A stretch of DNA of 64,000 bases from Candidatus Eiseniibacteriota bacterium (GCA_963702435.1 CAVPCR010000004.1:370829-434828); one strand, 5' to 3'; positions 41,179-57,910 are shown, numbered from the stretch's first letter. The notes: generated from the letters alone by a model not told the origin. Translations and numbers: made by a program.

Positions 41179-41538
41179 CCTGGTCGATCGCCGACAACCT
41201 GATCCGAGTGCTCGATCCCGCAACCGGCATGGTGTTGTCGGCCGAGCGCGCGTCGAATCCGGTTCGCCCTCGTCGAGAGGGCAGCCCCCGGCCAGCGACG
41301 CTCCCCGCTACCACCCTTTGTCCAGTCCGGCCCGGCAACCCGGGACATCCGGCCGTGACCGGCCATGAAGGTCGTAACGGAACGAACTCCTGGGTTTCGG
41401 ACCGGGGGGCGCGGTGCTGGTGGCCGTCGCTGGCCCTTACCACGCGGCAACCGTGTCGTTGCGGTGAACGCCTGTGATGGACCGCGGGCTCCTGCATTGA
41501 TACTGATTGGACTACAGCGCCGATGCGGGCGGTGACCG

Positions 41539-41585
41539 CAAGGGATAGGAGTTTCCATTCGTCGCTGCGCCGGGCGGGGGCTTCG
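41539..41585 (-). repeat. Terminal fragment (copy E) of the GACGAAAGGAAATTCCTATCCCT repeat unit
   Basis: The reverse complement reads CCCGGCGCAGCGACGAATGGAAACTCCTATCCCTTG, close to copy C (CCCGGCGCCGCGACGAAAGGAAATTCCTATCCCT). Confidence 0.7.
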
Positions 41586-41669
41586 CCTGAGAAGTGCGCG
41601 GATGGAGAGCGCCACAACCCCGCATGCGCCGCCTGATGGGCGACCGTGCCACCGGCCCAGCGACCGGCT

Positions 41670-41890
41670 CTTTCGGCGATGAGGCTTCGGTGCTGCAGCC
41701 CGTCGCCGATATCTACATCCGCCTGATGCAGATGCCGGTGCTGCCCTATCTCGTGCTGGCCTGATCATCGGGTTCGGCCAGCTCGAGGCGGAGCAGGCAC
41801 GGCGGTTCGCGAAGCGCGCACCAGCGCTCCTGCTCCTGACCTTGGGGCTGACCTTCGCAGTCATCGTTGCCATGCCTGTGTTGAAGGCCG
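41670..41890 (+). pseudogene. Fragment of a dicarboxylate/amino-acid:cation symporter (DAACS) gene
   Basis: ...VLQPVADIYIRLMQMPVLPYLVLA(stop/shift)LIIGFGQL... resembles the conserved TM2-3 region of GltP-type carriers. It is interrupted and lacks both ends. Confidence 0.35.
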
Positions 41891-41984
41891 GGGTCATGGC
41901 AGCCGGCGGGCTGTAGGGAGGCAAGGCGAGCTCCCGAGGCCTCGTGCCTGAGGAGCTGGGCGACAACTGCAGCTGAGTTGGGAG

Positions 41985-42315
41985 GTTTCATCGAGCCGCA
42001 CGGCGTTGTGGACATGGAAGCCGGAGTAGGGCCAGGCGGGCATGGAGGCGGCCACGTCGTCGCTGAACAGTCCGCGCTGGACGAAGGCGCGGAGCACGGC
42101 CCGGCGGAAGGCCTCGGTCAGCACCGCGAGCGCGTGGGTGCCGAGCGGCACAAAGGTGCCGTCGAGGCGAAAGGCGCCGTCGGTAGCGAGCACGAGCAGG
42201 CGGGGGTGCCAGTTGGTGAGCGTGCCATGGGTCTGGATCGAGGAGATGACGCCGGGGACGGCGCCGTCCGCACCGAGAGTGGCCCGCCCGCTGGTGCCGA
42301 TAGCGGGATAGAATG
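41985..42315 (-). pseudogene. IS91-family (HUH/Y2) transposase internal fragment, diverged copy
   Basis: ...GVISSIQTHGTLTNWHPRLLVLATDGAFRLDGTFVPLGTHALAVLTEAFRRAVLRAFVQRGLF... is colinear with the copies at 48049 and 56318. The HUH motif is degraded (HPRLLV versus HPHLHV). Confidence 0.7.
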
Positions 42316-42530
42316 CCGCTCAGGCCCAAGGTGCGCTATCGGACCCCGTGTCGCGAGTGAAAATCGCGTAACCTCCTGGAGAGGCGCCCTGCGGTGAGAA
42401 ACCGCCGTCGCTCATGCCAGTGGTCTATCCCGGCTGAGGCGCCAGGTTGCTGTGACACGCGGCTGCCGCGGAGCCCGGTGCGGGAGCGGGGCGAACGGAG
42501 CGCGAGGTTCTGAGAGGGAGAGCGGAAAGG

Positions 42531-43385
42531 GTGATCGAGATCATGTCGCCGCGGGATGCGATCCAGTCCGAGTTCGCGCTCGGCGCGGCGGAGTCCGATC
42601 CGGGGCCGCCGCCGGCCTGGATCACCGAGCCCGCGAACGAGGAGGCGATCGCGAGCGCGCTCGCCGAGCTCGATCCTGAGCAGCAGGCGGCGGTCACGCA
42701 CGGCGAAGGGCCGCTCCTCATTGTCGCCGGCGCCGGCACCGGGAAGACGCGCGTCATTGCGCATCGCATCGCCTATCTCATCGCCGCCAGGAAGGCCGAG
42801 CCGTCCGAGATCCTCGCGCTCACCTTCACCGAGCGCGCCGCGGCGGAGATGGAGGCGCGGGTCGATCTCCTCGTCCCCTATGGCTACACGGACATGTGGA
42901 TCTCGACCTTCCATGCCTTCGGCGACCGTATCTACCGCGAGTACGCGCTCGAGATGGGGCTCTCCGATGCGGCGGTCGTCCTGAACGAGGCGGAGCGGCT
43001 CGTCTTCTTCCGCGAGCGGCTCTTCCGCCTCCCGCTCCGGCGCTTGCTGCCGCTCGGAAACCCGGTGCGCCACCTGGCGGCGCTCCTGCGCGTCGTCGCG
43101 CGGGCGAAGGACGAGGGGGTGACGCCCGAACGCTACGTCGAGCACGCGCGCATCGAGCTCGATGCAGCGGCGGCGGAGGCGGCGGCCGCCGCCGATGATC
43201 TCGACGCCGGCGCCCGCCTCGCCGCGGCGCGCCGACAGCTCGAGATCGCCGAGACCTACCGGGCCATGGACGAGGAGCTGCACGCGGCCGATCGCATCGA
43301 CTTCGGCGATCAGCTCCTCCTCACGCTCCGCCTCCTCCGCGAGCAGGAGCACGTCCTCGCCCAGGTGCGCCGCCGCTTCCGCTAA
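42531..43385 (+). pseudogene. UvrD/PcrA-like helicase, N-terminal 284 aa only
   Basis: Walker A LLIVAGAGTGKT and motif Ia ILALTFTERAA are present. The ORF stops right after ...VRRRFR, where helicases continue with the DExx box. Repeat copy C follows. Confidence 0.8.
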
Positions 43386-43436
43386 TCGCGGTCGCCGATC
43401 GCGTGCACGCCTTCGTCGATCACCTCGAGCTCCTGG

Positions 43437-43675
43437 TGGATGCCGATCATCCTCGGCAGCGCGAGGGGAGAGGTGCGCCCAGCGGGGACCGGGGGTCGGT
43501 CCGCGGGACCGCCTCGCCGCGCGGCGGCCGTGGCCACCCCGCGCCAACACCACACGCTGACGCGCGGCCGCCGCTCACGCCACCGATTAGATGCGCCGCC
43601 GCCGCCGGTCACGCCGCTTCGCCCCCCGTTCCCCGCCTCCTCCCGGCGCCGCGACGAAAGGAAATTCCTATCCCT
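43437..43675 (+). repeat. Repeat unit copy C (about 240 bp, no adjacent transposase)
   Basis: It shares with copies A, B and B' the hairpin TGCCGA-TCATCC-TCGGCA, GAGGGGAGAGGTGCGCCCAGC, the hairpin GGACCG-GGGGT-CGGTCC, GCGGCGGCCG.GGCCACCCCGCG, and the terminus GACGAAAGGAAATTCCTATCCCT. Confidence 0.85.
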
Positions 43676-43686
43676 ATCCCTTCGAC

Positions 43687-44925
43687 TCACAGCACTCTCC
43701 ACCAGGGTACGGCCAGCACGTCGGGAGCCAGCCACTCGATCGTCCTTCCCGTGTGCAGCACGAGCCCAGCGCGCGCCTTCTTGCCGTACTCTGCACGGAA
43801 GGTTCGCACATGGGCCGCGTCGCCGAGCCGGGGCCGGCCTGTCGCCTTGACCTCGACAGGCAACAAGCGCCCGCCCGCCTCGATCACGAAGTCCACCTCC
43901 TCGCCGACGCTCGTTCGCCAGTAGAAGACATCGGCTCGCTCCAGGCGCGCGTCCCGCCACGCCAGAAGATCGTGAAGGACGATGTTCTCGAGATGGGGGC
44001 CGCCGGGCTCGGCGCCCCCCCCGAGATGCAGCGCCACTCCCGTGTCACCCCAGTAGAGCTTCGGAGACTTGATGAGCCGCTTGGTGCGATTCACCGCGTA
44101 CGCGGGCACCCGCACCAGCAGGTAAGAAGTCTCGAGGAGATTCAAGTAGCGGTGCACGGTCGGCTGGGGCAGCGCGACATCTCGGCCTAGTTCCGTCTGG
44201 TTGACGAGCTGGCCCAGCCGCTGGCCGGCCGCGCGCATGAGGCGGCGGAAGTCCGGCAGTGCCGCGACCGCGGAGAGATCCGGCAAGTCGCGCTCGAGGT
44301 AGGTGCGAACGTAGCCGTCGAACCACACCGCCCGCTGCCGGTCCGTCTTCAGGTGAACGGCCGGCGTCGGAAAGCCGCCGCGGCGCGCCAGGGCACGCCA
44401 GTCCTCCGGCTCGTCGGGCTCTGCCGACATGAGGTCGAGCCATTGCTCGTCACGGGCGGCAAGCAACTCGTCCCAGAGCCCGCAGCGGCCGAGCCCGCGC
44501 TGCTCCCGGCGCGTCATCGGCCACAGGGTGAGATAGCTCGCTCGACCGGCCAGCGACTCGGAAACCCGGCGCATCAGGAGTAGATTGGCCGACCCGGTGA
44601 GCAGAAAATGCCCCGGCCGCCGGCGGCGGTCGATCGCCCGCTTGACGGCGCGCAAGAGATCCGGCTCGCGTTGCACCTCGTCGAGCGTGACCGGCTGCGG
44701 ACCGCCGAGAAGCACCTCGGGATCGCGCCGTGCCGCATCGACCGTATCCAGATCGTCGAGGGAAAGGTAACGCCTCCCCGCCGGGGCGAGATCCTGCACC
44801 AAGGTGCTCTTCCCGGTCTGGCGGGCGCCGGTCACTACGACAGCGGGCATGGTGCTGAGGCATTCGTCGAGACTGCGGCCGACAAGCCGCGGAAGGGTGG
44901 CATCCATGCCGCGAATGATAATCAT
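43687..44925 (-). CDS. AAA-type ATPase with DUF4143 C-terminal domain
   Basis: Walker A VVTGARQTGKST and Walker B-like VTLDEVQ. The overall layout matches the widespread ATPase-DUF4143 family. The ORF is intact (412 aa). Confidence 0.85.
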   Translation of the reverse strand: MIIIRGMDATLPRLVGRSLDECLSTMPAVVVTGARQTGKSTLVQDLAPAGRRYLSLDDLDTVDAARRDPEVLLGGPQPVTLDEVQREPDLLRAVKRAIDRRRRPGHFLLTGSANLLLMRRVSESLAGRASYLTLWPMTRREQRGLGRCGLWDELLAARDEQWLDLMSAEPDEPEDWRALARRGGFPTPAVHLKTDRQRAVWFDGYVRTYLERDLPDLSAVAALPDFRRLMRAAGQRLGQLVNQTELGRDVALPQPTVHRYLNLLETSYLLVRVPAYAVNRTKRLIKSPKLYWGDTGVALHLGGGAEPGGPHLENIVLHDLLAWRDARLERADVFYWRTSVGEEVDFVIEAGGRLLPVEVKATGRPRLGDAAHVRTFRAEYGKKARAGLVLHTGRTIEWLAPDVLAVPWWRVL

Positions 44926-45084
44926 TCACGCTGTGAATAGACAAGGGCCAAGCGGGATCCCGGGCGGGCGGCGTCCGCGGCCGGCCCGCGGGAGCCACGG
45001 GCCGGGGGCTCGCTCCTTCTGTGTCGCCCAGCCATTCCTTCCGCACCGCGGCCTGGATCCCGGCGTGGGCGTCGGAGATGCACA

Positions 45085-45182
45085 AGGGATAGGAATCTCC
45101 TTTCGTCAATAGCCCGGGAGGAGGAGGAGAACGGGGAGCCAAGCCGCGCGCGCGACCGACCGGGAGGCGTCCGCGGCGTGGC
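45085..45182 (-). repeat. Repeat unit copy D (terminal about 98 bp, inverted relative to C)
   Basis: The reverse complement reads ...GCCACGCCGCGGACGCCTCCCGGTCGGTCGCGCGCGCGGCTTGGCTCCCCGTTCTCCTCCTCCTCCCGGGCTATTGACGAAAGGAGATTCCTATCCCTTG, nearly identical to the end of copies A and B'. Confidence 0.85.
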
Positions 45183-45185
45183 GGC

Positions 45186-45471
45186 GGCAGCTCGCTCTCG
45201 CGGTCCTCTGTCTCCGGTCGCGTGCAGAGCGCCGTGACGAAGCGGCTGCCGAACTCGCGCCAATGGCTGAACACCGGCGGAAGGACACCTGCCCCACCTC
45301 GGCGGCTCCGAGCCGGAGGAGGCCATGCCCGGCTCCGCGATGGAACGCCCGTCGGATTCGTTCGCCGAGCACCGGGCCGAGCAAGGGGGCATCGTCCTGC
45401 GGCACGATCACCAGGCGACCGTGGGGCGTGAGAGAAGGGGTCAGTCCAAGCTCGGTCGAGGTGGACGTCAT
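45186..45471 (-). pseudogene. N-terminal fragment of an SNF2-family helicase (SNF2-associated N-domain), frameshifted
   Basis: MTSTSTELGLTPSLTPHGRLVIVPQDDAPLLGPVLGERIRRAFHRGAGHGLLRLGAAEVGQV, then in another frame FSHWREFGSRFVTALCTRPE. This matches my recollection of the conserved N-terminus of bacterial SNF2/HepA-like helicases. It ends at repeat copy D. Confidence 0.5.
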
Positions 45472-45788
45472 CTCTGCGCGCCCTTGCCGAGGTGGCGCAT
45501 GAGATCGTCGATGAACCACGAGGGGGGAGGTGCTCCGGCAGACCGGTACTCGACAGGGACGACGACGTAGAAGCCGCGCTTCGGGACGACCAGGCGGCCC
45601 TTGCCGGCGAGCCGCATCACTGCCTTCTTGAGCATCACGGCGCTCGTCCCGAGCGCGGCCAGCGCCTCGGTGCGATCGAAGGTGTACCGACCTGCGCCCT
45701 GCAGGTCGTTCACAAGATCGGCCAGCGCTCGGTGTCTTGGTTCGTTGTCAGCCACGTCAGCTCCCCCAGGGACCATTGTCGGATGCAC
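45468..45788 (-). pseudogene. AbiEi-like wHTH protein, truncated after about 100 aa
   Basis: ...YTFDRTEALAALGTSAVMLKKAVMRLAGKGRLVVPKRGFYVVVPVEYRSAGAPPPSWFIDDLMRHLG... matches the N-terminal part of AbiEi-family antitoxins, which normally continue for 100 or more further aa. Confidence 0.5.
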
Positions 45789-46578
45789 AAAGCACCTCGG
45801 AGAGGGCCTTTTTGCAATCGTTATCGCGATTCAGCCTTGACCTGCCGGCGGGCGAAATGCGGTGGCTGCGCGGTTGCGCGCCGAGGTCCAAGGGGCTCAA
45901 GCGCCCTGAGTTCGGCGTTCGGCGGCGAGGTTGCCCTTCAAGCGACGGCCGCCTCTCCCACCGGGAGCCGTCAACCCGGCGTCACAAGGAGGTCTCAGTT
46001 CATCGCGTGATTCGAACCTGCAACCGGTGCCGTCGCTTTGGGCAGCAAGCTCAGGGCGGGCACGAAGCCGCAGGTACCTCATGGCCCGAATCGCCGCCGG
46101 TTCGGTGAGGAAGTCCATGTGTGCTCCTCTCTGGCTGAAGAAGCAGGTGGGGACTGGCTCCGGCGGCTGGAACGGGAGAGGCGTCATAGGCCCTGCCGAA
46201 GCTAGTGACCACGACGCCTTTCGCGATGCAGCCGGGACGCCGTCTGGCGGCAGCGCTTCTTCTTTGGCCGTCGTGTCTACCGCTGACGCTGCTGTACGGC
46301 TCCCGTACCCGCCCCGCCTCGCAGACCGGCACATATGGCTCCCCATCTTGGACGGTGTGCGAACGATTCTCGTTCTTCGAGTCCCCCGGGTCATCCGGCC
46401 GGACCATCCGCCTCCCCCCGCGGCCGAGGGCCCCATCCATCCCGAGGCGACCAGGGAGATGGCATGGAGCAGGGCCGATCGGACGTGCTGCGTCCAGCTT
46501 CTCGGCAGCGCGACGCGGTGCGAGACGTGAGAGGACGTCATCCTGCGCTCCCGGTAACTCCGCTGCCGCTCTTCGCAG

Positions 46579-46607
46579 TGGACCCGCCGCCCGTGCCAAG
46601 GTAGAAT
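46579..46607 (+). promoter_or_regulatory. Possible sigma70-like promoter for the nucleotidyltransferase pair
   Basis: TAGAAT at 46602-46607 with TGGACC 17 bp upstream. The ATG at 46617 is only 10 nt downstream, which implies a leaderless or near-leaderless mRNA. Confidence 0.25.
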
Positions 46608-46616
46608 CGGTTCCGC

Positions 46617-47093
46617 ATGGACTTCGGTGAAGCCAAACGAATCCTGGCCGCCTTCGAGCGAGAGGGAGTCCGTTACGTGCTCGTGGGCTCGATGGCCATG
46701 GCCGCGCAGGGGCTCATCCGAGCCACGCGGGACATGGACTTGTTCGTGGCTGCCGACCCGGAGAACATCGCCCGTCTCCGCTGTGCGCTCAAGACGCTCT
46801 TCCCTGAGGATCCCAATGTGGACCTGATCACGGCAGAGGACCTCGGGGGAAGCTATCCCGCGATCGAGTACACACCACCTCATGGCCTCTACTCGCTCGA
46901 CATCCTGACCCGGCTTGGCGAGGCGTTCCGGTTCGAGGACTTGGAGGCGGAGGCGATCGTCGTGGAGGGCATCACGATCCGGGTTGCCACGCCGCGCACG
47001 CTTTACCGCATGAAGAGGGGGACGGCCCGGCCGCAGGACCGCATTGACGCCGCCGCTATCCGTGAACGATTCGATCTCCCGGAGGATGCCTGA
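46617..47093 (+). CDS. Nucleotidyltransferase-fold protein (MNT/DUF6036-like)
   Basis: ...VRYVLVGSMAMAAQGLIRATRDMDLFV... fits the G[SG]-x(9-13)-DxD minimal NTase motif. 158 aa, intact. Confidence 0.7.
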   Translation: MDFGEAKRILAAFEREGVRYVLVGSMAMAAQGLIRATRDMDLFVAADPENIARLRCALKTLFPEDPNVDLITAEDLGGSYPAIEYTPPHGLYSLDILTRLGEAFRFEDLEAEAIVVEGITIRVATPRTLYRMKRGTARPQDRIDAAAIRERFDLPEDA

Positions 47094-47404
47094 TGGGAGT
47101 GCGGCGATACCGATCCGTGGAGGACATGCCCGCGGGCTCTCCCCGCCGCCCGCTGGATCCCGAGAACCTGGTGATTGCTTTCGGGCTCATGGATCTCGCG
47201 CACCGCATCGCCGCATTGTCATTCCCGCCCGGCATCAAGAAGTACCGCTCCCATGACGAAATGCTGCGCGCGCGCGAACGGTGGGCGGCGGCCGGGACCC
47301 ACGGGTCACGCGACGGAGACGATTGCGGACTTCAAGGCCGCGGGGATCCGCACCTACATCCCCGAACCCAAAACCCCCGGGGGCCGTCGCCGCTGGAAGG
47401 GTAA
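47093..47404 (+). CDS. Small partner ORF of the NTase (C-terminus probably altered)
   Basis: The ATG overlaps the NTase stop (TGATG). RRYRSVEDMP...PPGIKKYRSHDEMLRARERW resembles small proteins I recall next to such NTases. The last about 35 aa run into a transposase remnant. Confidence 0.45.
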   Translation: MGVRRYRSVEDMPAGSPRRPLDPENLVIAFGLMDLAHRIAALSFPPGIKKYRSHDEMLRARERWAAAGTHGSRDGDDCGLQGRGDPHLHPRTQNPRGPSPLEG

Positions 47405-47420
47405 ACCACCGGCCCCGTAG
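47290..47420 (+). pseudogene. IS5/IS1182-like DDE transposase fragment
   Basis: An alternate frame reads ...ETIADFKAAGIRTYIPEPKTPGGRRRWKGK..., resembling the conserved ...GI..YI.EP......W.G... block of these transposases. Only about 40 aa. Confidence 0.3.
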
Positions 47421-47604
47421 TATCTGCCTGTGCCTCCCGAAAACTGTCTCTCTGTCCCTCCCGAAAACCCCGTAGCCGCCTGCCCCAATTGAGTATGCGC
47501 CCGCTCGGCCTCGCCGTCCTGCCGTTCTTCCCGTGCCGACCAGCGGAATCGGGTACTCCCTTGCGTCGTGGTAGTCTCCCTGCTCTCCCCGCAGGCCCGA
47601 GCGG

Positions 47605-48048
47605 TTGCCGCGACCCATGACGCCTATCTTCGCCGCCCTCTTCGCGTTCCTCGGCGCCAGCCTTCGTTCCCGGGCCTCGATGCAGCTTGAGATCCTCGCG
47701 CTCCGGCATCAGTTGGCCGTCTGCCAGCGATCTCTGAAGCGACCGCGTCTCCGGCCCGCCGACCGCCTCCTCTGGCCCTGGCTCGCCCGCCTCTGGCCGC
47801 GCTGGCGAGAAGCCCTCATGATCGTTCAGCCGAGAACCGTCATCACCTGGCAACGGCGCCGCTTCCGCGAGCACTGGACCCGTCTCTGCCGCTCGGGGAA
47901 ACCTGGACGGCCGTTGGTAGCGAAAGAAGTGCGTGTTCTCATCCGGCGGCTGTCGGCCGCCAATCCACTCTGGGGAGCACCGAGGATTGTCGGCGAGCTC
48001 GCCAAGATCGGAATCGCCGTGACCAAGGCCACGGTCGAGAAGTACACG
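47605..48048 (+). pseudogene. N-terminal 148 aa of an rve-type integrase/transposase (HTH part only)
   Basis: ...LEILALRHQLAVCQRSLKRPRLRPADRLLW...IVQPRTVITWQRRRFREHW...LIRRLSAANPLWGAPRIVGELAKIGIAVTKATVEKYT is the usual N-terminus of this transposase class. The DDE core is absent. Confidence 0.65.
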
Positions 48049-49193
48049 CTCGCCAACTGGCATCCCCACCTGCACGTGCTCGCCACCGACGGCGCCTTTC
48101 GGCCCGACGGCACGTTCGTGCCGCTCGGTGTTCACTCGCTCGCGGTGCTGACCGAGGCGTTCCGCCGCGCCGTGCTCCGCGCCTTCGTCCAGCGCGGCCT
48201 GTTCAGCGCCGAGGTGGCCGCCTCCATGCGCGCCTGGCCCCACTCCGGCTTCCATGTCCACAACGCCGTGCGGCTCGATGGGGATGACCTCGGCGGCCTC
48301 TTGCCGCTCGCTCGCTACGCAGCCCGCGCCCCCCTCGCCCTCACCCGCATCACCTACGACGCTGCAAAGCCGCAGGTCCTGGTTGCCTCCGACAAGGCCG
48401 AAGGGCCCACCGCCGGGACGCATGCCTTCGCTCCTCTCGACTTCCTTGCCCAGCTCCTCACCCACATCCCGCGCCAGGGCGAACACCTCGTGCGCTACTA
48501 CGGCGCGTATGCGAGCCGCACCCGCGGCACCTGGCGCCGGCAAGGGATCGGCCCCTGGGTCGAGCGGCAGCGCGGCGAGGGGGACCAAGAGGACGAGCCA
48601 CCGGGTGCACCCCGCGATGCCAACGCTGATCCTGGCGGTGACCCGGTGGTGCCACCTCCGGAACCGCTATCCCCATCGCGGGCCGCGCTCAGGAAGCGCT
48701 GGGCGGAACTCCTCCGTCGCCTCTACGAGGTCGATCCGCTGAGTTGCCCGCGGTGCGGGGGCGAGATGCGGATCATCGCCTTCCTCCTCGATCCACCGGT
48801 GATCGACGCCATCCTCCGCCACCTCCGCCGCGCTGCCTACGACGCGCGGGCCGGCCCGTGGGCGGAGGTGGTTGGGAGCAATGCGGTGGCGGGGGACGCC
48901 GGCCCGGCGGGGTGCGGCTAGCCCGGCCGGCCGCGGCCAGCGCGCGGTTTGGGGTGCTGCCGATCACCATCGGCAGCGCAAGGGGAGAGGTGCGCCCAGC
49001 CGCGACCGGGCGTCGGTCGGCGGGGCCGCATCGCGGTGCGGCGGCCGCGGCCACCCCGCGGCAACGTCGGGCCACGACGCGCAGTCGCCGGTCACGCCAC
49101 GCCGCGGACGCCTCCCGGTCGGTCGCGCGCGCGGCTTGGCTCCCCCTTCTCCTCCTCCTCCCAGGCTATTGACGAAAGGAAATTCCTATCCCT
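47939..49193 (+). repeat. Direct repeat copy A (1,255 bp): integrase remnant, IS91 transposase fragment and 272-bp structured tail
   Basis: It matches 56211-57465 at a constant +8272 offset. I found 5 differing bases by eye (48161, 48229, 48586-48588). It ends ...GACGAAAGGAAATTCCTATCCCT followed by TG (CTTG). Confidence 0.9.
48049..48921 (+). pseudogene. IS91-family HUH/Y2 transposase, C-terminal about 290 aa, fused in frame to the integrase fragment
   Basis: HUH motif WHPHLHVLATDG, tyrosine motif HLVRYYGAYASRTRG and C-terminal CPRCGGEM zinc ribbon are present. The N-terminal zinc-binding region is missing. Confidence 0.75.
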
Positions 49194-49195
49194 TG

Positions 49196-49428
49196 ATCGG
49201 CTGTACGACGCTGAGGGCCAGAACGTCGGGTACTTTCGCGGTGATGTCGCGTATTCGCTTCAGGGAGATTACCTCGGCGAGCTATACGACGACGAGCGCA
49301 TCGGGAAGCGCACGACGCGCATGCAGAGCAGAGGAAGCGCGATGATGGGGCACGTCGGGATCGCCCTGATGAGGCAAGTCGGACGCGTCGGCCTGTCGGT
49401 TGCTGGGTGGTCAGACCCGGATTTCTAA
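49196..49428 (+). pseudogene. C-terminal part of a 4-fold-beta-flower-like protein
   Basis: ...LYDAEGQNVGYFRGDVAYSLQGDYLGELYDDERIG...WSDPDF has only about 2 of the expected 4 repeats. It begins directly at the end of repeat A without its own start. Confidence 0.35.
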
Positions 49429-49482
49429 CCTCGAGGCAGCTCTGACGCGGGAGTTGGGGTAATGGAGTTGCGGAGGGACGCT

Positions 49483-49517
49483 AAAAAGGGCCCCAGGTGA
49501 GTGCCTGGAGCCCTTTT
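49483..49517. terminator. Canonical bidirectional intrinsic terminator
   Basis: AAAAA-GGGCCCCAGG-TGAGTG-CCTGGAGCCC-TTTT lies between convergent ORFs. This A/T-flanked form is unusual in this window. Confidence 0.7.
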
Positions 49518-49534
49518 CGAGGCGTGTTCAGTGA

Positions 49535-50269
49535 CTAAGGACCGGATGGTTGACACGTGTCAATGCCGGGGACCTCTACGCCGATGGCTCCTCGCTGATC
49601 TTGTGGAATGGGCGTGGGCATGTTTCCACCGGCGGTTATAACATGGGTCCCGAGGGGGAACTCAGCCTCGGCGATGGTGAGCATCGTTCCTGGATTCCCA
49701 GCTCGGATGAGCAGGCGGCCGATAGGAGCAAGATCTCCACCACGCAGAGGGTTGAAAGCGACGGCATAGTTACCATTGCCAGTACAGGGCGTGACCACCT
49801 CGATGGCTCCTGATCGGCAGCTGCCGATCCATCCGTAGCAAGTCCAGCTTGGATCCCATGAGAGGCGCAGCTGGATGCCGGTCACGGCCTCGTAGTCAAT
49901 GAGGTAGACGTACACGATGACGAGCGCTGCGGAGTCGACCGTGGTGGTCGCGGTCTGCGTGGCGCAGTCGAGTCCCTGGAGCTGCGGCGTCTCACAAGTG
50001 GAGGCCGGATCGTAGGACACAGCGTGGAGGACGATGCGCGTATCTGCGTTGGGTGTGCTTGGTGGCGCCTCGACGGGGGTGGGGGTGACATCGGTGACTC
50101 CAGACGTGTCGATGACGACGCCTACGGAGTCATCTACCTGTAGATGGCCGTCGCCTGGCACCACCGCTGGGGGGTTGATGGCTTTGTTCCCGGGAGGGGC
50201 GCCGGGATCAAGACAGCTCAGTGCGGCCATGAGGCCCAGGAGCACTGAGACCAGAGTAAGGTTTTTCAT
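49535..50269 (-). CDS. Cys-rich lipoprotein of unknown function
   Basis: ATG at 50269 follows GGAG. Lipobox LMAALSC. 244 aa with 8 Cys after the lipobox Cys, 17 nt downstream of the protease pseudogene, in an AT-richer region. Confidence 0.55.
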   Translation of the reverse strand: MKNLTLVSVLLGLMAALSCLDPGAPPGNKAINPPAVVPGDGHLQVDDSVGVVIDTSGVTDVTPTPVEAPPSTPNADTRIVLHAVSYDPASTCETPQLQGLDCATQTATTTVDSAALVIVYVYLIDYEAVTGIQLRLSWDPSWTCYGWIGSCRSGAIEVVTPCTGNGNYAVAFNPLRGGDLAPIGRLLIRAGNPGTMLTIAEAEFPLGTHVITAGGNMPTPIPQDQRGAIGVEVPGIDTCQPSGP

Positions 50270-50285
50270 TTCGGTACTCCTTTGC

Positions 50286-51557
50286 TTACCTGAGGACAAT
50301 GGCCTTATGGGTGAGGTCTCGGCCGGCGGCGTGGATGCGGTAGAAGTAGACGCCGGAGGAGACCGGTTGCCCGCCATCAGTGCGGCCGTCCCAGGTGGCG
50401 GCGTGCTCGCCGGGGTCTTCGAAACGGTCGACGAGCCGGCGGATGAGGCGACCACTGGGCGTGAGGACATCGAGAGTTACGTGCCCGCGAGTCGGGAGCT
50501 GGTAGGTGATGCGGGCAGATCCGGGCGAGGGGTTCGGCGCTATCCCGCGAAGCGCAAACGGTGGGGCCATCGGCACGTGATCCCGGACGGCGTAGACGAG
50601 TCCGAGACAGTTCGTGCCCTTGGGGACGCCGATGTCGAGAAAGATGTTCCCTGGTTCGTTCGCAAAGGGGTACCCGAAGGTGTCCCATCCTTCGCAGAAC
50701 TCAGAGAATTCATAGATGAAGTGCCCGCCGATCATGTAGTTGACCGAGACATCGGCGATCTCAGTTATCCCGGTATAGAAGGTGGTGCTGTTGTCGTCAT
50801 CGTTATAGGCGTCGTGGTCGTTGGGAAGGTCGTAGATGTCCCAGAGGTGGGTGGCGACGGCACGCTCCGCCGATTCCCCGCGCGGGTAAGGGGTGTTTCC
50901 GCCCCATTCGAGGTCGTAGGTCTCGGGCAGCGTGTCGTTGAGGGCACCGTTGTAGACGTAATCTTCGAACAGGAAATCGTTGGTGGCCCCGCACGGGTAG
51001 AACCACGCCCAGCCTTCACTGTACGCGCAGTATGGGTCGGTGACAGCCCCCCAGTGATGGCTGTTGCAGGGGGTGGTCGGCGGTGGGAGGGCCGCAAGGG
51101 TGTTCAACACGTGATGGGCATATTCATGGCCGATGATGTCGAAGTCCCACTCATCGAATCGAATGTCGCTTGGTGGATTGCTGTAGCCATCGAGGTGGAT
51201 GATCGCATCTAGGCGTGTGTAGTAGGAGTATGTTTGTGGTAGCGTGCGGTCCCAAATGCACTGGACTGGCGGGGCAGTGTAACCGGTCGCCGTCTCGGTG
51301 AAGTGGGCGAGGTCGTAAAGGTCGTATGTGATGTTGAAAGCACCGCGCTCGGTGCCGGTATAGGTGAAGGCCCCATAGAGGCCTTCGAGATCGATGAAGT
51401 TGGCGTTGTTGACGTACCGGGCCGCAAGGGGAAGCCAGACGCCATATCCATAGAGGTAGTCGTCTTGATCGACAACGGTCCGGTAGTCGACCAGGTCGGT
51501 GGTCCATGTCGGGATGAAGAGCTGTGAGCGTGGGCGCGGTGTTTGATGGCATTTGAG
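50286..51557 (-). pseudogene. HEXXH zinc metalloprotease with CTD, 5'-truncated
   Basis: The frame is open from 51557 to 50286 and contains IIGHEYAHHV and a complete CTD (...ITYQLPTRGHVTLDVLTPSGRLIRRL...SGVYFYRIHAAG...AIVLR). There is no ATG, GTG or TTG upstream of 51110 and no signal peptide. It abuts the transposon end. Confidence 0.6.
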
Positions 51558-51579
51558 TCACGCATGTCGAGGGGAGTGT

Positions 51580-52419
51580 TTATCGCGCCTTGGCGCGGCC
51601 GCGGTCGGGGACCTTCGGCACGGTGAAGACCTCGAGGTAGAGCTTTTCGTCGAGCTGGCGTGCATCACGCTGAACGGCAGCATCGAGGAGCTCTCCGGCC
51701 ATGGTCATGAGGATGCGGTAGTTGCCGGCGGCGTGCTCGCAGAGCGTGGTCATGAGCTCGGTCGTCATCAAGTGCGGGTTTCCGGTCTGGTTGAGGGCGT
51801 GACGCAAGCATTCGAGCAGTTCCTGTGGAGTGGCGGGCTGGAGGACGAGGCGAACACGCATCCGGCTGCCGAGGGGAAGGAGCTCCTCGCCGCGGAAGTT
51901 CTCGGTCAGGCGAGAGTCACCGCCGAGGACGACGGTGAGGAGCGCGCGGGAGTCGAGCTCGGTGGCGCAGAGCAGGCGGAGCTCGTTGAGCACGGCGGGC
52001 CGCATCTCCTGTGCCTCGTCGACGATGAGCACGGGACGGAGGAGAGCGGCTTCGATGTGCGCTTGCCAGCGTTCGCGGAGCACCCGGGCTCCGGCCCAGC
52101 GGTTGTGGGGTGAGAGCTGAACGCCGAACAGGTCGCCGAGCTCGCGGTAGAAGTCGGGGACGCCGCTCTGGGGACGGGTGAGGATCCCGACCATGAGGTC
52201 ACGATGTCCGGAGAGCTTGTCGACGAGGAGCCGCAGCGCGACCGACTTGCCGAGTCCGGGATCGCCGGTGATCAGGGCGAAGCCTCCTTCGCGGGTCAGG
52301 TTCTCGACGCGCCACGAGAAGTGCTCGAGCTTGGGAGTGAGGAGGAGCGCCTCGATGGGGACCTCGGGCGAGAAGGGGTTCCACTTGAGGCCATGGAGCG
52401 AGAGGAGCTTCGGGTTCAT
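51580..52419 (-). CDS. TniB/ExeA-like AAA+ transposition ATPase
   Basis: Walker A ITGDPGLGKS and Walker B VLIVDEAQ. The ATG overlaps the transposase stop (ATGA at 52416-52419). Confidence 0.85.
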   Translation of the reverse strand: MNPKLLSLHGLKWNPFSPEVPIEALLLTPKLEHFSWRVENLTREGGFALITGDPGLGKSVALRLLVDKLSGHRDLMVGILTRPQSGVPDFYRELGDLFGVQLSPHNRWAGARVLRERWQAHIEAALLRPVLIVDEAQEMRPAVLNELRLLCATELDSRALLTVVLGGDSRLTENFRGEELLPLGSRMRVRLVLQPATPQELLECLRHALNQTGNPHLMTTELMTTLCEHAAGNYRILMTMAGELLDAAVQRDARQLDEKLYLEVFTVPKVPDRGRAKAR

Positions 52420-53936
52420 GGCTGGTCCTCCTGGAGAGTGGTCTGCGGGGGCGGCGCGTGGTGCGCGGCGAGTGGATACGGTGCGGGTTTCGGGAGATAG
52501 GCCGGCGGGAGGCCGGTGGCGGCGTAATCTTTCATCAGCTGGCGCATCAACGGCGCCATGCCGGACTCGGTCGGCGGATCCTGATCGCGGGTGGCGAGGG
52601 GATCTTCAGGCAGTCGACGCCTGAGGCCGTCAGCGTTACGTGCCTTGTCGAGGGGGTAAAGTTGACAGAGTACCGCTCCCGTGCGTTCGTCGACGAGGTG
52701 AACCTGAGAGAGGTCCCAGGTGGCGTAGCGCACGGCGACGCGTTCGAGGGTGCGGTAGTGCGCGGGGATCTCGAAGCGGCATCCCTCGAGCGTCAGGGTG
52801 CCGTCGCTACGGCGCTGAGTGCGCCGCACTTCGATCGTGAAGGCGAGGCGCAGCGGCTGGCTGTCGGGGCTCGATCGGCCGACGTCGGGTCCTTGGAGGT
52901 AGCGTTCGACGGGGGACTGGTGGATCTCGGAGTGCACGGTGCGGTTGTACTCCATCTCGGCCCAAGCCTGGGTGGCCTCGTTGAGAAGCGGCAGCGTCAG
53001 GTCGCGCACTCCTTCGAGCATGGCGATCAGCCGTCCTTCGAGCTGGGCCCAGAAGACTTCTTGTTTGGCGTTCTGGTAGGCGGAGTAGGGCAAGGTCAGG
53101 TGATGGAGGATGCCGAGCCGGGCCAGGCCCTGGGTCACCTCGCCAGCCTTCATGGCGGTGCCGTTGTCGCTCATCAACGACCTCGGCAACGAGCGCTTCT
53201 GAATCGCCTGCGAGAGACCATGCACGAGGTTCTCCGCGTTCTCAGCGTGGTACCATTGCGCGTGACAGACCAATCGTGAGCGATCATCGAGGATCGCCAG
53301 AACCTGCGGGATCACCCACTCGCCGTCGGGCGTGAGCACCTTCTTCGAGCCGGCGTGGAAGTCGAGATGCCAAAGCCCGTGGACGTACTCGGCCTCGAAG
53401 CTACGCACCTCGCGCTCATCGAGCCGTGCTTCGGCGCGTCGCACCCCGGTGGTGTCGGCGCTGGAGACCCGGCGCCGCTTCCACAGCCCGTTGGCCTTCA
53501 TGAACCGACGGACGGTCGAGTACGAGGGTAGCGGCCCGAGGGTCGGATCCGCACCCGCCAGCACTGCGAGGTTGTCGTAGTGCAGCGCGTAGCTCCAACC
53601 GCGGTGGGCCTTGTACAGTTCGTGAATCGCCTGCTTGAGCCCGTCCCCGATCGCGAGCGCCCGGCCGGAGTCCTTGCGGATCTTGCGCCGAAGCACCCTG
53701 ACTGGATCGAACCGCTCCCGCTTCGCCTGGTGATACCAACGTTCGATGGTCGACACCCCGAACTGCATCGGTCGAGCGGTCACGGGGTGGAGCCACTGCT
53801 TCTCGGCCAGCTTCCGGAGCTCGCCCTGAAGCTCGCCACGCGCCGGCGGCGCCGCCAGGAGCGGGCCGATCACCGAGAAGCGCAGATGCGCCCAGCGTTC
53901 GTGGACCGTGAGCTTACGGTTCTCGTCGTCTGCCAT
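52416..53936 (-). CDS. DDE (rve-type, Mu-like) transposase
   Basis: The catalytic blocks are WHLDFH, LMSDNGTAM and YQNAKQEVFW (D, D, 35-E spacing). The N-terminal HTH region is present. 506 aa, intact. Confidence 0.9.
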   Translation of the reverse strand: MADDENRKLTVHERWAHLRFSVIGPLLAAPPARGELQGELRKLAEKQWLHPVTARPMQFGVSTIERWYHQAKRERFDPVRVLRRKIRKDSGRALAIGDGLKQAIHELYKAHRGWSYALHYDNLAVLAGADPTLGPLPSYSTVRRFMKANGLWKRRRVSSADTTGVRRAEARLDEREVRSFEAEYVHGLWHLDFHAGSKKVLTPDGEWVIPQVLAILDDRSRLVCHAQWYHAENAENLVHGLSQAIQKRSLPRSLMSDNGTAMKAGEVTQGLARLGILHHLTLPYSAYQNAKQEVFWAQLEGRLIAMLEGVRDLTLPLLNEATQAWAEMEYNRTVHSEIHQSPVERYLQGPDVGRSSPDSQPLRLAFTIEVRRTQRRSDGTLTLEGCRFEIPAHYRTLERVAVRYATWDLSQVHLVDERTGAVLCQLYPLDKARNADGLRRRLPEDPLATRDQDPPTESGMAPLMRQLMKDYAATGLPPAYLPKPAPYPLAAHHAPPPQTTLQEDQP

Positions 53937-53993
53937 CGCGTTCGCCTCCCTTTCGGGCGGCCGAGCCTGGCCGCCGTGATGTGGGAGCGGACG

Positions 53994-54638
53994 CTAATCG
54001 CGGTCACCCTCGGCCCGCACCGCGCGTCTTCTGCGGGTGGCCCGCGGGGTCACCCGGCGCCGCACATAGCTTGCGCATTCCGGCGCCGACGCGGTGGTGA
54101 TCGGGGAGAGGAATCGCAGGAGGGCGATCAGCCGGGAACGGTCATCGCCAGGGAAGCGACCGAGGAGCACGCGGGGTAGATCCATCGCGAGCAGGCGTCC
54201 GGTGAACCGGCCGCGGGCCACGCTCCAGAACCGGCTACGCGCGAAGGTGGTGCGCCACCACCGGCGCCACCGGGCCAGGGTCCGGGAGCTCACCCCCAGC
54301 CATTGCCGAAGCTGCCGTTGAGCGCGCCCCCGCCCTCGCATCGCCGCCAGGACGACCACCGCCGCGGAGTAAACCCGCCGGCCCAAGAAGCGTACCGAAG
54401 GTGGCGTCAGCCGCCGCCGGCACCCCTCCACGGCGCAGCACAAGCTCAGTCGGAGGTCATACCGGACCGCCAACCGCTCTGGAAGACCCCGCGGCTTACG
54501 GGGGTAGTTCGCCTGGTCGACCCTCCCGCCGCACCACCCGCACCCCCCGCGGCGGGCCGCCCGGGCGAGATCCTGGTCGTACTGAAAAAGGACCTCGTAG
54601 AGCCGCTCGTCCCTGAGCAGATCCTGGTACAATCCCAT
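53994..54638 (-). CDS. Cys-rich (zinc-finger-like) accessory protein of the transposon
   Basis: GGCGWCGGRVDQANYPRKPRG...CCAVEGC... It is the first gene of the element. I recall similar ORFs next to such transposases, but their function is unknown. Confidence 0.5.
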   Translation of the reverse strand: MGLYQDLLRDERLYEVLFQYDQDLARAARRGGCGWCGGRVDQANYPRKPRGLPERLAVRYDLRLSLCCAVEGCRRRLTPPSVRFLGRRVYSAAVVVLAAMRGRGRAQRQLRQWLGVSSRTLARWRRWWRTTFARSRFWSVARGRFTGRLLAMDLPRVLLGRFPGDDRSRLIALLRFLSPITTASAPECASYVRRRVTPRATRRRRAVRAEGDRD

Positions 54639-54795
54639 CCTCCTTCGTCTTTGCTGGACTGAAGGAGGAAACCCCCTCGGGGCGCTTGAATCAAGCTCCT
54701 TGAGGGGGTTCTGCTTGCACTCCCTGATGGCGCCTCGGACGATTCCATCAGTGATCGTGATCCGAAACGCCGTCCCCGACCATCAACTTTCTTGC

Positions 54796-56046
54796 TTACG
54801 CTGACTGATCGACTGATACGTTGTACATGCCCCAACTGCCAGAGCCGTCCGTCTCGGTCGCCTGGTCAAATCGGAAGTAGAATGTGCCGCCGGGGACGGT
54901 AAACTGGTACTGTCCGTTGGGGTGAGTGTAGTAAAGTTCAGTAAGAAGATACTTCATCGCCCTATTGGTCTGTGGCCCTGTCACGTTGTCGTAGTCCTGG
55001 TAGAGATACCTTCCCAAGATGTCGAAGTCGCGGACGACGCGCACGGGATAAGGATCCACGGTGAAGCCGGTTTTGCGGGCGCGGATCTCGCCGGTCATCG
55101 CGGCGGTGCCGGCAGTGAAGCGGGCTTTGTGATCGGGAAGCTCGGTGATGGTGCCTAAAGATGCCGGGACGAGCCACCACTCCTCCATGTCGAGGATCGT
55201 ACCCGGAGGATACTCGTACCAGAAGAGCATGCAGTATCCGCTTGTGACTTGAAAGTATGGGAAGTTAACGGAACGGACAGGACCGGCTGTGCAATCACCC
55301 TGGTAGCGGGGACTCAGGGATCCGTGGTCACGGGCAGGGGGCTGGGAATGCGGGGGATCGATGCAACAAGGGTCAGGGCGCTTGTTGACCTGGGGTGCGA
55401 CGTCTGGTTCGGGGGGAACAGAGACGGTGGGTGGTGGGGGAGTGGTGACGGGGTGGCTTGTGCTATCGCTTCGAGGTGCACCCTCTGGGTATGCCTGGAG
55501 GATGTCGTAGGCAAATGGCGGCGTGGGGGAGGAGGGATCAGGGGCGCGTGGACGGTAACCGTGGATGCAAACAGGAAGGGATGCCGCTGCCAGAGGGGTA
55601 TCGGGAGATGCAGGCCCGTCGGCCGTGCAGGACCACGGACGGATGGGGTTGATGCACTGTGCGCGGATGGTGTCGCTTCCGCAAGTGGTGGCAACGAAAC
55701 GCACAGAGAGTTGGAGGGGCGTATGTGGCTTGAATGAACCACGCCAGTGCTTGCCCTTCCGCGTCAAGAGGACACCGCCCTCACGCGTCCAGACGGTGCG
55801 CGACGTGGTGTCTTGGGGCGCAGCGATAGCTATGCCCGGACAACCGAGTGATGCCAGGGCAAGATCCATTGGCGCATCAGCGGTAAAGCTCGCAGTTACC
55901 GAGACCGTGTCCCCGACGCTAATCTCGGTCTTGGAAGCAGTGAGTTGAACGCGAACGTTCGGAGCAGGCTCTTGGGGCGCTGCGGAGGTCGAGGAGATTG
56001 CCAAAACAAATGCAGCGCAAGCAAGGGCCGGGTTGAGATGCTTCAT
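54796..56046 (-). CDS. Secreted Pro/Cys-rich protein of unknown function
   Basis: ATG at 56046 follows AGGAGG. Signal peptide MKHLNPALACAAFVLAISSTSAA. 416 aa with a Pro-rich linker, in an AT-richer region. Confidence 0.6.
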   Translation of the reverse strand: MKHLNPALACAAFVLAISSTSAAPQEPAPNVRVQLTASKTEISVGDTVSVTASFTADAPMDLALASLGCPGIAIAAPQDTTSRTVWTREGGVLLTRKGKHWRGSFKPHTPLQLSVRFVATTCGSDTIRAQCINPIRPWSCTADGPASPDTPLAAASLPVCIHGYRPRAPDPSSPTPPFAYDILQAYPEGAPRSDSTSHPVTTPPPPTVSVPPEPDVAPQVNKRPDPCCIDPPHSQPPARDHGSLSPRYQGDCTAGPVRSVNFPYFQVTSGYCMLFWYEYPPGTILDMEEWWLVPASLGTITELPDHKARFTAGTAAMTGEIRARKTGFTVDPYPVRVVRDFDILGRYLYQDYDNVTGPQTNRAMKYLLTELYYTHPNGQYQFTVPGGTFYFRFDQATETDGSGSWGMYNVSVDQSA

Positions 56047-56210
56047 ATCGGCCTCCTGCCTGCCGGGATGGGTCCCTGAATGATACTCCTGCGAAGAGCG
56101 GGGCAAGAAGAAATTGTGTATCCGCTAAGACGCTGCAACAACGACGGTTGCAATAGGCAGTGAAACGAGCGGACCACGAGAGAAGAGACCGAAGGGACCG
56201 ACCGATCATT

Positions 56211-57465
56211 TCATCCGGCGGCTGTCGGCCGCCAATCCACTCTGGGGAGCACCGAGGATTGTCGGCGAGCTCGCCAAGATCGGAATCGCCGTGACCAAGG
56301 CCACGGTCGAGAAGTACACGCTCGCCAACTGGCATCCCCACCTGCACGTGCTCGCCACCGACGGCGCCTTTCGGCCCGACGGCACGTTCGTGCCGCTCGG
56401 TGTTCACTCGCTCGCGGTGCTGACCGAGGCTTTCCGCCGCGCCGTGCTCCGCGCCTTCGTCCAGCGCGGCCTGTTCAGCGCCGAGGTGGCCGCCTCCATG
56501 CTCGCCTGGCCCCACTCCGGCTTCCATGTCCACAACGCCGTGCGGCTCGATGGGGATGACCTCGGCGGCCTCTTGCCGCTCGCTCGCTACGCAGCCCGCG
56601 CCCCCCTCGCCCTCACCCGCATCACCTACGACGCTGCAAAGCCGCAGGTCCTGGTTGCCTCCGACAAGGCCGAAGGGCCCACCGCCGGGACGCATGCCTT
56701 CGCTCCTCTCGACTTCCTTGCCCAGCTCCTCACCCACATCCCGCGCCAGGGCGAACACCTCGTGCGCTACTACGGCGCGTATGCGAGCCGCACCCGCGGC
56801 ACCTGGCGCCGGCAAGGGATCGGCCCCTGGGTCGAGCGGCAGCGCGGCGAGGGGGACGCGGAGGACGAGCCACCGGGTGCACCCCGCGATGCCAACGCTG
56901 ATCCTGGCGGTGACCCGGTGGTGCCACCTCCGGAACCGCTATCCCCATCGCGGGCCGCGCTCAGGAAGCGCTGGGCGGAACTCCTCCGTCGCCTCTACGA
57001 GGTCGATCCGCTGAGTTGCCCGCGGTGCGGGGGCGAGATGCGGATCATCGCCTTCCTCCTCGATCCACCGGTGATCGACGCCATCCTCCGCCACCTCCGC
57101 CGCGCTGCCTACGACGCGCGGGCCGGCCCGTGGGCGGAGGTGGTTGGGAGCAATGCGGTGGCGGGGGACGCCGGCCCGGCGGGGTGCGGCTAGCCCGGCC
57201 GGCCGCGGCCAGCGCGCGGTTTGGGGTGCTGCCGATCACCATCGGCAGCGCAAGGGGAGAGGTGCGCCCAGCCGCGACCGGGCGTCGGTCGGCGGGGCCG
57301 CATCGCGGTGCGGCGGCCGCGGCCACCCCGCGGCAACGTCGGGCCACGACGCGCAGTCGCCGGTCACGCCACGCCGCGGACGCCTCCCGGTCGGTCGCGC
57401 GCGCGGCTTGGCTCCCCCTTCTCCTCCTCCTCCCAGGCTATTGACGAAAGGAAATTCCTATCCCT
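56211..57465 (+). repeat. Direct repeat copy B (1,255 bp)
   Basis: See copy A. It starts inside the integrase remnant (TCATCCGGCGGCTGTCGG...) and ends ...TTCCTATCCCT. Confidence 0.9.
56291..57193 (+). pseudogene. IS91-family transposase C-terminal fragment, copy B
   Basis: 300-aa ORF identical to copy A apart from substitutions such as MRAWPH/MLAWPH and GDQED/GDAED. It begins within the residual integrase codons (MTKATVEKYT/LANWHPHLHV). Confidence 0.75.
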
Positions 57466-57896
57466 GAGATGCGGATCATCGCCTTCCTCCTCGATCCACC
57501 GGTGATCGACGCCATCCTCCGCCACCTCCGCCGCGCTGCCTACGACGCGCGGGCCGGCCCGTGGGCGGAGGTGGTTGGGAGCAATGCGGTGGCGGGGGAC
57601 GCCGGCCCGGCGGGGTGCGGCTAGCCCGGCCGGCCGCGGCCAGCGCGCGGTTGGGGGTGCTGCCGATGATGATCGGTTGCGCGAGGGGAGAGGCGCGCCC
57701 TGCGGGGATCGGGTGTCGCTCGGCGGGGCCGCTTCGCGGTGCGGCGGCCGCGGCCACCCCGCGGCAACGTCGGGCCACGACGCGCAGTCGCCGGTCACGC
57801 CACGCCGCGGTCGCCTCCCGGTCGGTCGCGCGCACCACCTCGCTCCCCGTTCTCCTCCTCCTCCCGGGCTATTGACGAAAGGAAATTCCTATCCCT
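57466..57896 (+). repeat. Partial tandem copy B' (last about 150 bp of the transposase gene plus tail), diverged
   Basis: It restarts at GAGATGCGGATCATCGCC (equivalent to 48763 in copy A) and runs to a second ...GACGAAAGGAAATTCCTATCCCT. About 90% identical to B by eye. Confidence 0.85.
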
Positions 57897-57910
57897 TATC
57901 CCTTATCCCT
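57890..57910 (+). repeat. TATCCCT x 3 microrepeat at the repeat terminus
   Basis: Read directly. Copy C has TATCCC x 2 at the equivalent point (43670-43681). Confidence 0.85.

Follow-up and report, generated by a model that had tools for sequence, protein, structure and literature searches.

The 64,000-nt stretch of Candidatus Eiseniibacteriota DNA presented above (in the following, the window) contains a GC-rich unit of 272 nt that recurs six times in complete or shortened form, and this raises the question of what kind of genetic object the unit is: the end of a known type of mobile element, a small element in its own right, a structured RNA, or the result of duplication or faulty assembly. 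Our answer, to which we assign a probability of about 0.88, is that it comprises the 3′ non-coding region and the origin end (oriIS) of an apparently undescribed insertion sequence (IS) of the IS91 family, i.e., an ordinary feature of a mobile element and not a new type of element or RNA. As the data show directly, the unit forms the 3′ end of a full-length element, the transposase of that element belongs to the IS91 family, the terminus is homologous to the oriIS of known members, and the 3′ boundary is exact.

Six copies (A, B, B′, C, D, and E) with a common terminus had been reported in an original prediction made from the sequence of the window alone, and they are found at the places given there. 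A search of the window with the terminal 23-mer GACGAAAGGAAATTCCTATCCCT, allowing up to three mismatches, returned six matches, with 0 expected by chance and none in any of 100 dinucleotide-preserving shuffles; repeat finding and alignment gave the same six copies. The coordinates agree overall, apart from the start of C (≈ 43441 instead of 43437) and that of B′, whose unit begins at 57625, since 57614-57624 are still coding. All of the conserved blocks are present, namely hairpin 1 (GCTGCCGAT-CACC-ATCGGCAGC, 48956-48977), GGGGAGAGGTGCGCCC, a second hairpin, the CTCCTCCTCCTCCC tract, and the terminus. Likewise, A, B, and B′ each follow directly on the TAG stop codon of an N-terminally truncated IS91-family gene with a Y2_Tnp domain (PF04986, E=1e-17), as had been claimed; in A and B this domain covers profile positions 13-178 of 183. 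The transposase part of copy A displays, by inspection, the motifs HPHLHVL, RYYGAY, and CPRCGG, and it lacks the Zn-finger domain and the first ~190 residues.

The parent element and its origin end

The transposase fragment of copy A (291 amino acids, aa) has more than 1000 relatives, the best of which, P0001, is a full-length protein of 483 aa, 98% identical to the fragment and composed of a Zn_Tnp_IS91 domain (PF14319) and a Y2_Tnp domain (PF04986). P0001 scores 161.9 bits against the NCBIfam model transpos_IS91 (NF033538; cut-off 125), which places it in the IS91 family, and 144 bits against the model of ISCR clade Ia, far from the cut-off of 925. On the public contig L016, tnpA (727-2178) is followed by the same 272-nt unit, 98% identical and ending in ...GGAAATTCCTATCCCT at position 2450, with unrelated DNA beyond. 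Since the unit is located here 3′ of a full-length IS91-family tnpA, it represents all of the DNA from the tnpA stop codon to the 3′ terminus of the element. Comparison of L016 with L017 and L018 (82% and 66% protein identity) placed the 5′ end of the element near L016 604-624, at GCTGCCTGATCCCACAGAAGTCACTTCCGTGAACC. The intact element measures ≈ 1.85 kb and consists of the 5′ end GCTGCCTGATCC, the 483-aa tnpA, the 272-nt unit, and the 3′ end ...GGAAATTCCTATCCCT. Inspection of two or three independent full-length insertions (L016 and L007/L014) revealed dissimilar ends, neither terminal inverted repeats nor a target-site duplication; in L016 the element runs from GCTGCCTGATCC... to ...TTCCTATCCCT between the flanks GCAATC and GCTACT. 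The 5′ boundary is common to L016 and L018, and a 5′ boundary is likewise shared by L007 and L014/L012.

The terminus in the window, GAAAGGAAATTCCTATCCCT, ends 272 nt past the stop codon and carries the motif TTCCTAT(A/C)CC; an origin end downstream of tnpA with this terminal motif is characteristic of the IS91 family. The oriIS of ISCR1 was given as 5′-GTGGTTTATACTTCCTATACCC, situated at the right end (PMC13023784), and that of ISCR27 as GCGGTTGAACTTCCTATACC, 236 bp past the stop codon (PMC8894482). Read directly from annotated plasmids, ISVsa3/ISCR2 closes with GAAAAGGGCGTTTATTCTTCCTATACG, 235 nt past the stop, and an ISCR3-like copy beside tet(G) with GAAAAGGGCGTTTGAACTTCCTATACG, 244 nt past the stop, both sharing the layout GAAAAGG...TTCCTATACG. 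An IS91-like element on a Trichlorobacter plasmid (40% identity) terminates in GAAAAAGCAAATTCCTATTCCT, again 235 nt past the stop. The family-typical distance of the motif from the stop codon is about 220-270 nt. The suggestion in the original prediction that the unit could be an oriIS-type end of an undescribed IS91/ISCR-like element is thus supported by the full-length parent, the transposase family, and the oriIS motif at a distance typical of the family.

Further copies occur in related genomes, as anticipated. An exact scan for the terminal 22-mer, with one genome per species, gave 15 loci, in metagenome-assembled genomes (MAGs) of Sulfomarinibacteraceae, Holophagae, Thermoanaerobaculales, and Terriglobia (Acidobacteriota among these) and in one Eisenbacteria MAG. 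In Sulfomarinibacteraceae the 22-mer ends a complete element of 1833 bp (L007 6913 to 5081), the transposase of which is ~36% identical and the subterminal DNA unrelated; MAGs of this family also hold internally deleted, two-ended derivatives of the 1833-bp element together with origin-end remnants (L003 1550-2685; L012 489-1803; L010, L009, L004, L008, L011). A second scan, of metagenomes, was anchored on the protein and hence free of bias towards the terminus; here, about 20 relatives with 51-61% identity end in ...GA(T/A)TGAAATTCCTATCCCG (...GAAATTCCTATCCCG). The last ~20 nt are far better conserved than either the protein or the remainder of the unit, which fits a site of transposase recognition and nicking. 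The terminus is expected to function as oriIS, with a predicted transposase nick site. Viral contigs gave 0 matches to the terminus; the 15-mer GGGAGAGGYGCGCCC matched them 120 times, which was put down to chance, none of these matches having the terminus nearby.

With regard to its source, L016 is a close relative of the window's organism. The coding part of a UvrD-like gene is ~99% identical between the two, and lower values, 85-90%, are confined to the intergenic patch beside the gene, in which two indels occur, and to the IS fragment at 41989-42287; this mosaic of divergence is seen in window 42240-42919 against L016 1-640. Recent horizontal spread, considered in view of 98% identity for the IS versus 88% for the flank, was dropped because the divergence of the flank is confined to the intergenic patch and spares the UvrD coding part (~99% identical). 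Past the terminus of the intact element, L016 2451-2640 appears by eye to be part of a phage terminase-type gene (YYAMGVDTGRDLHVVILK...), and the L016 element may reside in a prophage. Three closer relatives of the transposase, P0004, P0008, and P0011, are encoded on contigs too short to include the unit, and no additional unit sequences were obtained from them.

Structure of the unit

The original prediction had mentioned, as an alternative, a structured element or RNA mobilized in trans; considered here was a structured RNA, either a 3′ untranslated region (UTR) element or a small RNA, with hairpins maintained by selection. Hairpin 1 is a perfect 9-bp stem, modified versions of which occur in L018 and L101. 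The fold of the top strand is slightly better than that of shuffled sequences (z = -2.15 as DNA and -1.86 as RNA, with -0.5 in a further calculation), values that are unremarkable at 75% G+C. Covariation was examined for the four predicted hairpins in five distinct unit sequences, with shuffled and slid controls. Two-sided stem changes were found in 4 pairs versus 1.9 expected, a number attained in 14 of 500 shuffles; on the other hand, the fraction of paired cells (85.9% vs 84.8% in shuffles) and the covariation score (matched by 135 of 500 shuffles) remained at the level of the controls. The swapped closing pair of the second hairpin, which the original prediction had singled out, turned out to be a single case, one C-G to G-C change at a position where three of the five sequences are unpaired. 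Long-range pairing is missing in L018. Covariation lends the hairpins no support.

A search of 41000-58500 against Rfam at a permissive threshold (E<=1) returned no match over the unit and two chance matches elsewhere in the stretch, and no terminator or promoter pattern was found in the unit. A small open reading frame (ORF) within it (GTG 48990 to TGA 49170-49172) stays open in A, C, and L018, but the encoded peptides have nothing in common except 'VRPA', and the ORF was rejected as not coding. Furthermore, the 45- and 99-nt remnants contain none of the hairpins, and conservation across subfamilies is confined to the last ~20 nt, which behave like a site of DNA cleavage. Taken with the foregoing, these data render a structured RNA highly improbable.

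Truncation, proposed one-ended transposition, and stacked ends

All six copies in the window keep the 3′ terminus to the nucleotide, while their 5′ cuts lie at about 45, 99, 235, 431, 1149, and 1149+106 nt from it (Table 1). A constant origin end, a variable other end, and, in copy B, a co-mobilized flank would be the footprint of one-ended transposition, and we infer that the remnants arose by origin-first rolling-circle transposition. Along these lines, 5′-truncated origin-end remnants of 97-400 nt are common in the relatives from Sulfomarinibacteraceae. In IS91 itself, oriIS starts and terIS ends transposition, the two being functionally distinct; 82 bp of the right end are enough, the functional intermediate is a single-stranded circle of the bottom strand, and termination often fails, such that one-ended transposition is frequent (PMC13181058). 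For the element described here, strand displacement would begin at oriIS, proceed towards the 5′ end of tnpA, and stop at non-canonical sites, by one-ended transposition or premature termination. As A and B lack the first ~190 tnpA codons, the transposase for their movement would be supplied in trans by an intact copy elsewhere.

Table 1. Remnants of the IS91-family element and other features of the window, with positions on contig L016 where these could be mapped
Feature	Coordinates	Strand	Description
Terminus matches (23-mer search)	41541-41563, 43653-43675, 45085-45107, 49171-49193, 57443-57465, 57874-57896	-, +, -, +, +, +	One per copy
Copy E	41541-41585	-	Solo remnant of ~45 nt; terminus 41541-41563 matches at 21/23
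Internal tnpA fragment	41989-42287	-	L016 1239-1537, 90% identical; both ends missing
UvrD-like gene, truncated	42531-43385		PF00580, E=8e-43; cut at profile position 214/271
Copy C	43441-43675	+	235 nt, hairpin 1 to terminus; 77% identical to A; L016 2215-2450
ATCCCT after C	43676-43681	+	Terminal reiteration
Copy D	45085-45183	-	Final 99 nt of the element; 97-98% identical to A and L016; L016 2352-2450
DDE-type (IS3/IS481-like) transposase, N-terminal fragment	47605-48044	+	Fused in frame to copy A; weak IS3 match, E=0.0097
Copy A, coding part	48045-48921	+	C-terminal 291 codons of IS91-family transposase (Y2_Tnp)
Copy A, non-coding unit	48922-49193	+	272 nt; hairpin 1, GGGGAGAGGTGCGCCC block, GC-rich middle, polypyrimidine tract, oriIS terminus 49171-49193
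Copy A, entire	48045-49193	+	98.3% identical to L016 1302-2450
Tn7/Mu-like module between A and B	51580-53936	-	506-aa protein with rve, HTH_32, Mu-transpos_C; 279-aa AAA_22 ATPase
Copy B	56211-57465	+	1255 nt: 106 nt of DDE fragment, tnpA remnant 56317-57193, unit 57194-57465; L016 1302-2451
Copy B′	57466-57896	+	Final 431 nt of the element: 159 nt of tnpA 3′ end, unit 57625-57896; L016 2020-2450
Two additional TATCCCT heptamers	57897-57910	+	Directly after B′ terminus; outside the unit
Starts of truncated forms expected at a circle junction			GAGATGCGG and GCTGCCGATC

The most telling case is the chimeric repeat formed by A and B (47939-49193 vs 56211-57465), which differs at 5 of 1255 nt and has identical 272-nt units. 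The final 106 nt of the DDE fragment (47939-48044) are found again in copy B, which indicates that they traveled together with the IS91 remnant, and copy B would have been mobilized from the origin end, carrying along the A remnant and 106 nt of a foreign gene. Beyond the terminus the flanks diverge, with TGATCGG following A and GAGATGC following B; as B stops precisely at the IS terminus, a plain segmental duplication is unlikely. Repeats of this type, 99.6% identical over 1255 nt and 8.3 kb apart, are prone to misassembly, which could be taken to mean that the copies are assembly artefacts or segmental duplications with no transposition involved. Given that the copies differ mutually by 0.4%, 5%, 23%, etc., are found on both strands with different flanks, all end at exactly the same nucleotide, and share this terminus with elements in 15 unrelated public genomes, such an origin is the least credible of the alternatives considered here.

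It was also conceivable, and had been proposed in the original prediction, that a non-autonomous element is mobilized in trans. In its present form, the proposal is that the ~240 nt between hairpin 1 and the terminus, both included, constitute a discrete element resembling a miniature inverted-repeat transposable element (MITE), with hairpin 1 and GCTGCCGATC as surrogate terIS and the terminus as oriIS, moved by the full-length element. Two independent solo copies, C (from 43441) and the Eisenbacteria MAG locus L006, start within ~6 nt of each other at hairpin 1; they are, however, the only ones among the copies found to share a 5′ boundary, and with ~7 truncation points over 1.8 kb the chance that two fall within 6 nt is roughly 0.1-0.15 by our estimate. 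The unit begins with GCTGCC-GATCACCA, which is similar to GCTGCCTGATC-CCA at the 5′ end of the L016 element (14 of 2000 shuffles score as well), but the resemblance was not reproduced in L018 (555 of 2000 shuffles). Hairpin 1 and the GGGAGAGGTG(C/T)GCCC block recur in L018 and L101, at 66-73% transposase identity. The remaining remnants begin 45, 99, 431, and 1149 nt from the terminus, and in the better-sampled Sulfomarinibacteraceae subfamily the truncation points are scattered. We hold a discrete mini-element to be unlikely. A stretch at 44947-44995 may be a seventh, degenerate piece of the unit, as 71-74% of its positions match when it is aligned with 45143-45191 or with the reverse-complemented 49101-49135; given the high G+C content, the resemblance may be due to chance.

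Several points weigh against the interpretation of the copies as products of an IS91-family element moving origin first. The window contains neither an intact copy nor any 5′ end of the element, and the presence of a trans-acting transposase elsewhere in the genome is consequently an assumption. The original prediction had pointed to a CTTG flank, one of the tetranucleotides (GTTC/CTTG) known from IS91; TG follows the terminus in A, D, and E only, and a target tetranucleotide of this kind is not consistent at oriIS, the two following bases varying across ~43 termini of relatives. TG was found after 3 of 8 termini of this subfamily and after 1 of ~38 others, and this branch may have a different, weaker target preference. 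The 5′ break points display no convincing common motif, CAC(T/G) at two and GCTGCC at two being too few, which leaves room for later deletions or rearrangements, instead of premature termination, as the cause of some truncations. Finally, remnants in other genomes were sought by way of the terminus, which biases the search towards copies that have retained it.

Another feature close to the origin end is a set of short reiterations. Pieces of the terminus, 6-9 nt in length (TATCCCT, ATCCCT, CCTATCCCT, ATCCCG), are repeated directly after it, in the window behind B′ and C, and similar tails follow the termini of L006, L020, L022, L034, L042, and L045. At 7 of 43 termini the last five bases are found again in the next 14 nt, compared with 0.46 expected (binomial p=4e-7). 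The irregular spacing in L020 argues against simple slippage. Copy B′ (431 nt, 94.7% identity to A) follows on the terminus of B with no base in between, and at this point (57465|57466) the end of B abuts the 5′-truncated start of a lineage diverged by 5%; to judge from the sequence, the arrangement resembles a circle junction, with an origin end next to a truncated 5′ start. L101 (73% protein identity) is another mosaic of stacked remnants: its positions 1-829 begin with hairpin 1 and the GGGAGAGGTGTGCCC block, followed by truncated tnpA and then by hairpin 1 again.

A tentative and, in our judgement, rather unlikely explanation of these arrays is that the nicked junction between the origin end and its flank might be a preferred site of integration, where origin-first strands of any length would be stacked, including B′, a possible ~240-nt mini-element with a ter-like hairpin, and oligonucleotides of 6-9 nt. 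Short origin-proximal strands would then be re-joined at the nicked ori-flank junction. A parallel may be drawn with rolling-circle plasmids of pT181 type, whose initiator, in the form of RepC*, was reportedly described by Rasooly and Novick in 1993 as emerging from termination with a short oligonucleotide attached, derived from the DNA immediately 3′ of the nick. The likeness is one of analogy only, as pT181 is a plasmid replication system rather than a transposon; an oligonucleotide of this kind re-joined at the nick would give terminus repeats of 6-9 nt. If the explanation were true, the arrays (B|B′|TATCCCT|TATCCCT; C|ATCCCT; the tails of L006, L020, L022, and L042) would record abortive rolling-circle transposition as it occurs in nature and allow initiation and termination by a Y2 transposase to be read out from sequence alone.

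Genomic context and relation to known elements

The region from 41 to 58 kb is a mosaic of mobile and defense-type gene fragments, among them a truncated UvrD-like gene, a DUF4143 ATPase, a symporter fragment, the DDE-transposase fragment, a Tn7/Mu-like module, and a truncated alpha-amylase-like ORF after B′. The original prediction had placed C and D next to truncated host genes. This is correct for C, which is fused to the UvrD-like gene (PF00580), cut within its helicase domain; the 5′ side of D adjoins an N-terminal gene fragment that is SNF2-like by eye only, with no match in Pfam and NCBIfam. Copy E, which aligns more closely with C than with A and belongs to a C-like lineage, adjoins on its 5′ side a frameshifted fragment of a glutamate/aspartate-symporter-like gene (weak GltP match, E=1.8e-4). 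The internal tnpA fragment is situated beside the UvrD-like gene, at the same site where L016 has the intact element. UvrD-like genes are found beside IS91-like elements in three places (window 42531-43385; L016 3-389; Trichlorobacter plasmid L102 2498-3576). Such a gene was considered as cargo or partner of the element and rejected, for there is no sequence relation between the window and the Trichlorobacter locus and the gene lies outside the element boundaries; the adjacency is probably a coincidence. A 15-nt sequence (CGAGCCGCCGAGATC) is repeated in tandem about nine times at 41048-41190, within an ORF of 974 codons (38693-41617, minus strand) with a weak pentapeptide-repeat match.

With IS91, IS801, and IS1294, the HUH elements of Y2 type, the element shares a single tnpA with an N-terminal Zn-binding domain and Y2_Tnp that passes the NCBI IS91 model, two different ends devoid of terminal inverted repeats, no visible target duplication, an origin end downstream of tnpA, and a sequence footprint consistent with one-ended, origin-first mobilization. 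It differs from them in several respects: protein identity to the enterobacterial members is only ~27-34%, orf121 and a consistent GTTC/CTTG at the origin end are missing, and the hosts are uncultivated soil or sediment lineages of ~70% G+C. The subterminal palindromes of IS91 and IS801 were not recognized with confidence in the element; short palindromes located just upstream of the terminus vary from subfamily to subfamily, and the ends fold no better than shuffles. With the ISCR elements (ISCR1, ISCR2/ISVsa3, ISCR3-like, and ISCR27) it has in common TTCCTAT(A/C)C after a GAAA(A)GG box, ~235-255 nt past the stop, a terminus kept in truncated copies, and neighboring gene fragments joined to the 5′ side of remnants. 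In contrast to these, its transposase falls short of the clade Ia model, the spacer between GAAAGG and TTCCTAT is 3 nt instead of 12 nt, and no resistance genes are attached. Moreover, a conserved 5′ end is recognizable (L016 vs L018; L007 vs L014), whereas ISCRs are described as having no terIS or an unclear one.

Helitrons, rolling-circle transposons of eukaryotes, follow the same HUH logic, with asymmetric ends, capture of gene fragments, and truncated copies sharing one end; they encode a Rep-helicase fusion and end in a 3′ hairpin and CTRR. No sequence relation to the remnants described here is expected.

The assignment of this conspicuous repeat to a known mechanism removes a candidate for a new structured element. 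It also establishes where an IS91-family element that appears to be undescribed begins and ends, which aids the annotation of MAGs from Acidobacteriota, Eisenbacteria, and Terriglobia, and the shared last ~20 nt testify to the deep conservation of the oriIS core TTCCTAT(A/C)CC. Truncations anchored at the origin, together with the short terminal reiterations, could guide the study of how Y2 transposases start and stop, about which little is yet understood in the case of the ISCR elements, the vehicles of antibiotic-resistance genes.

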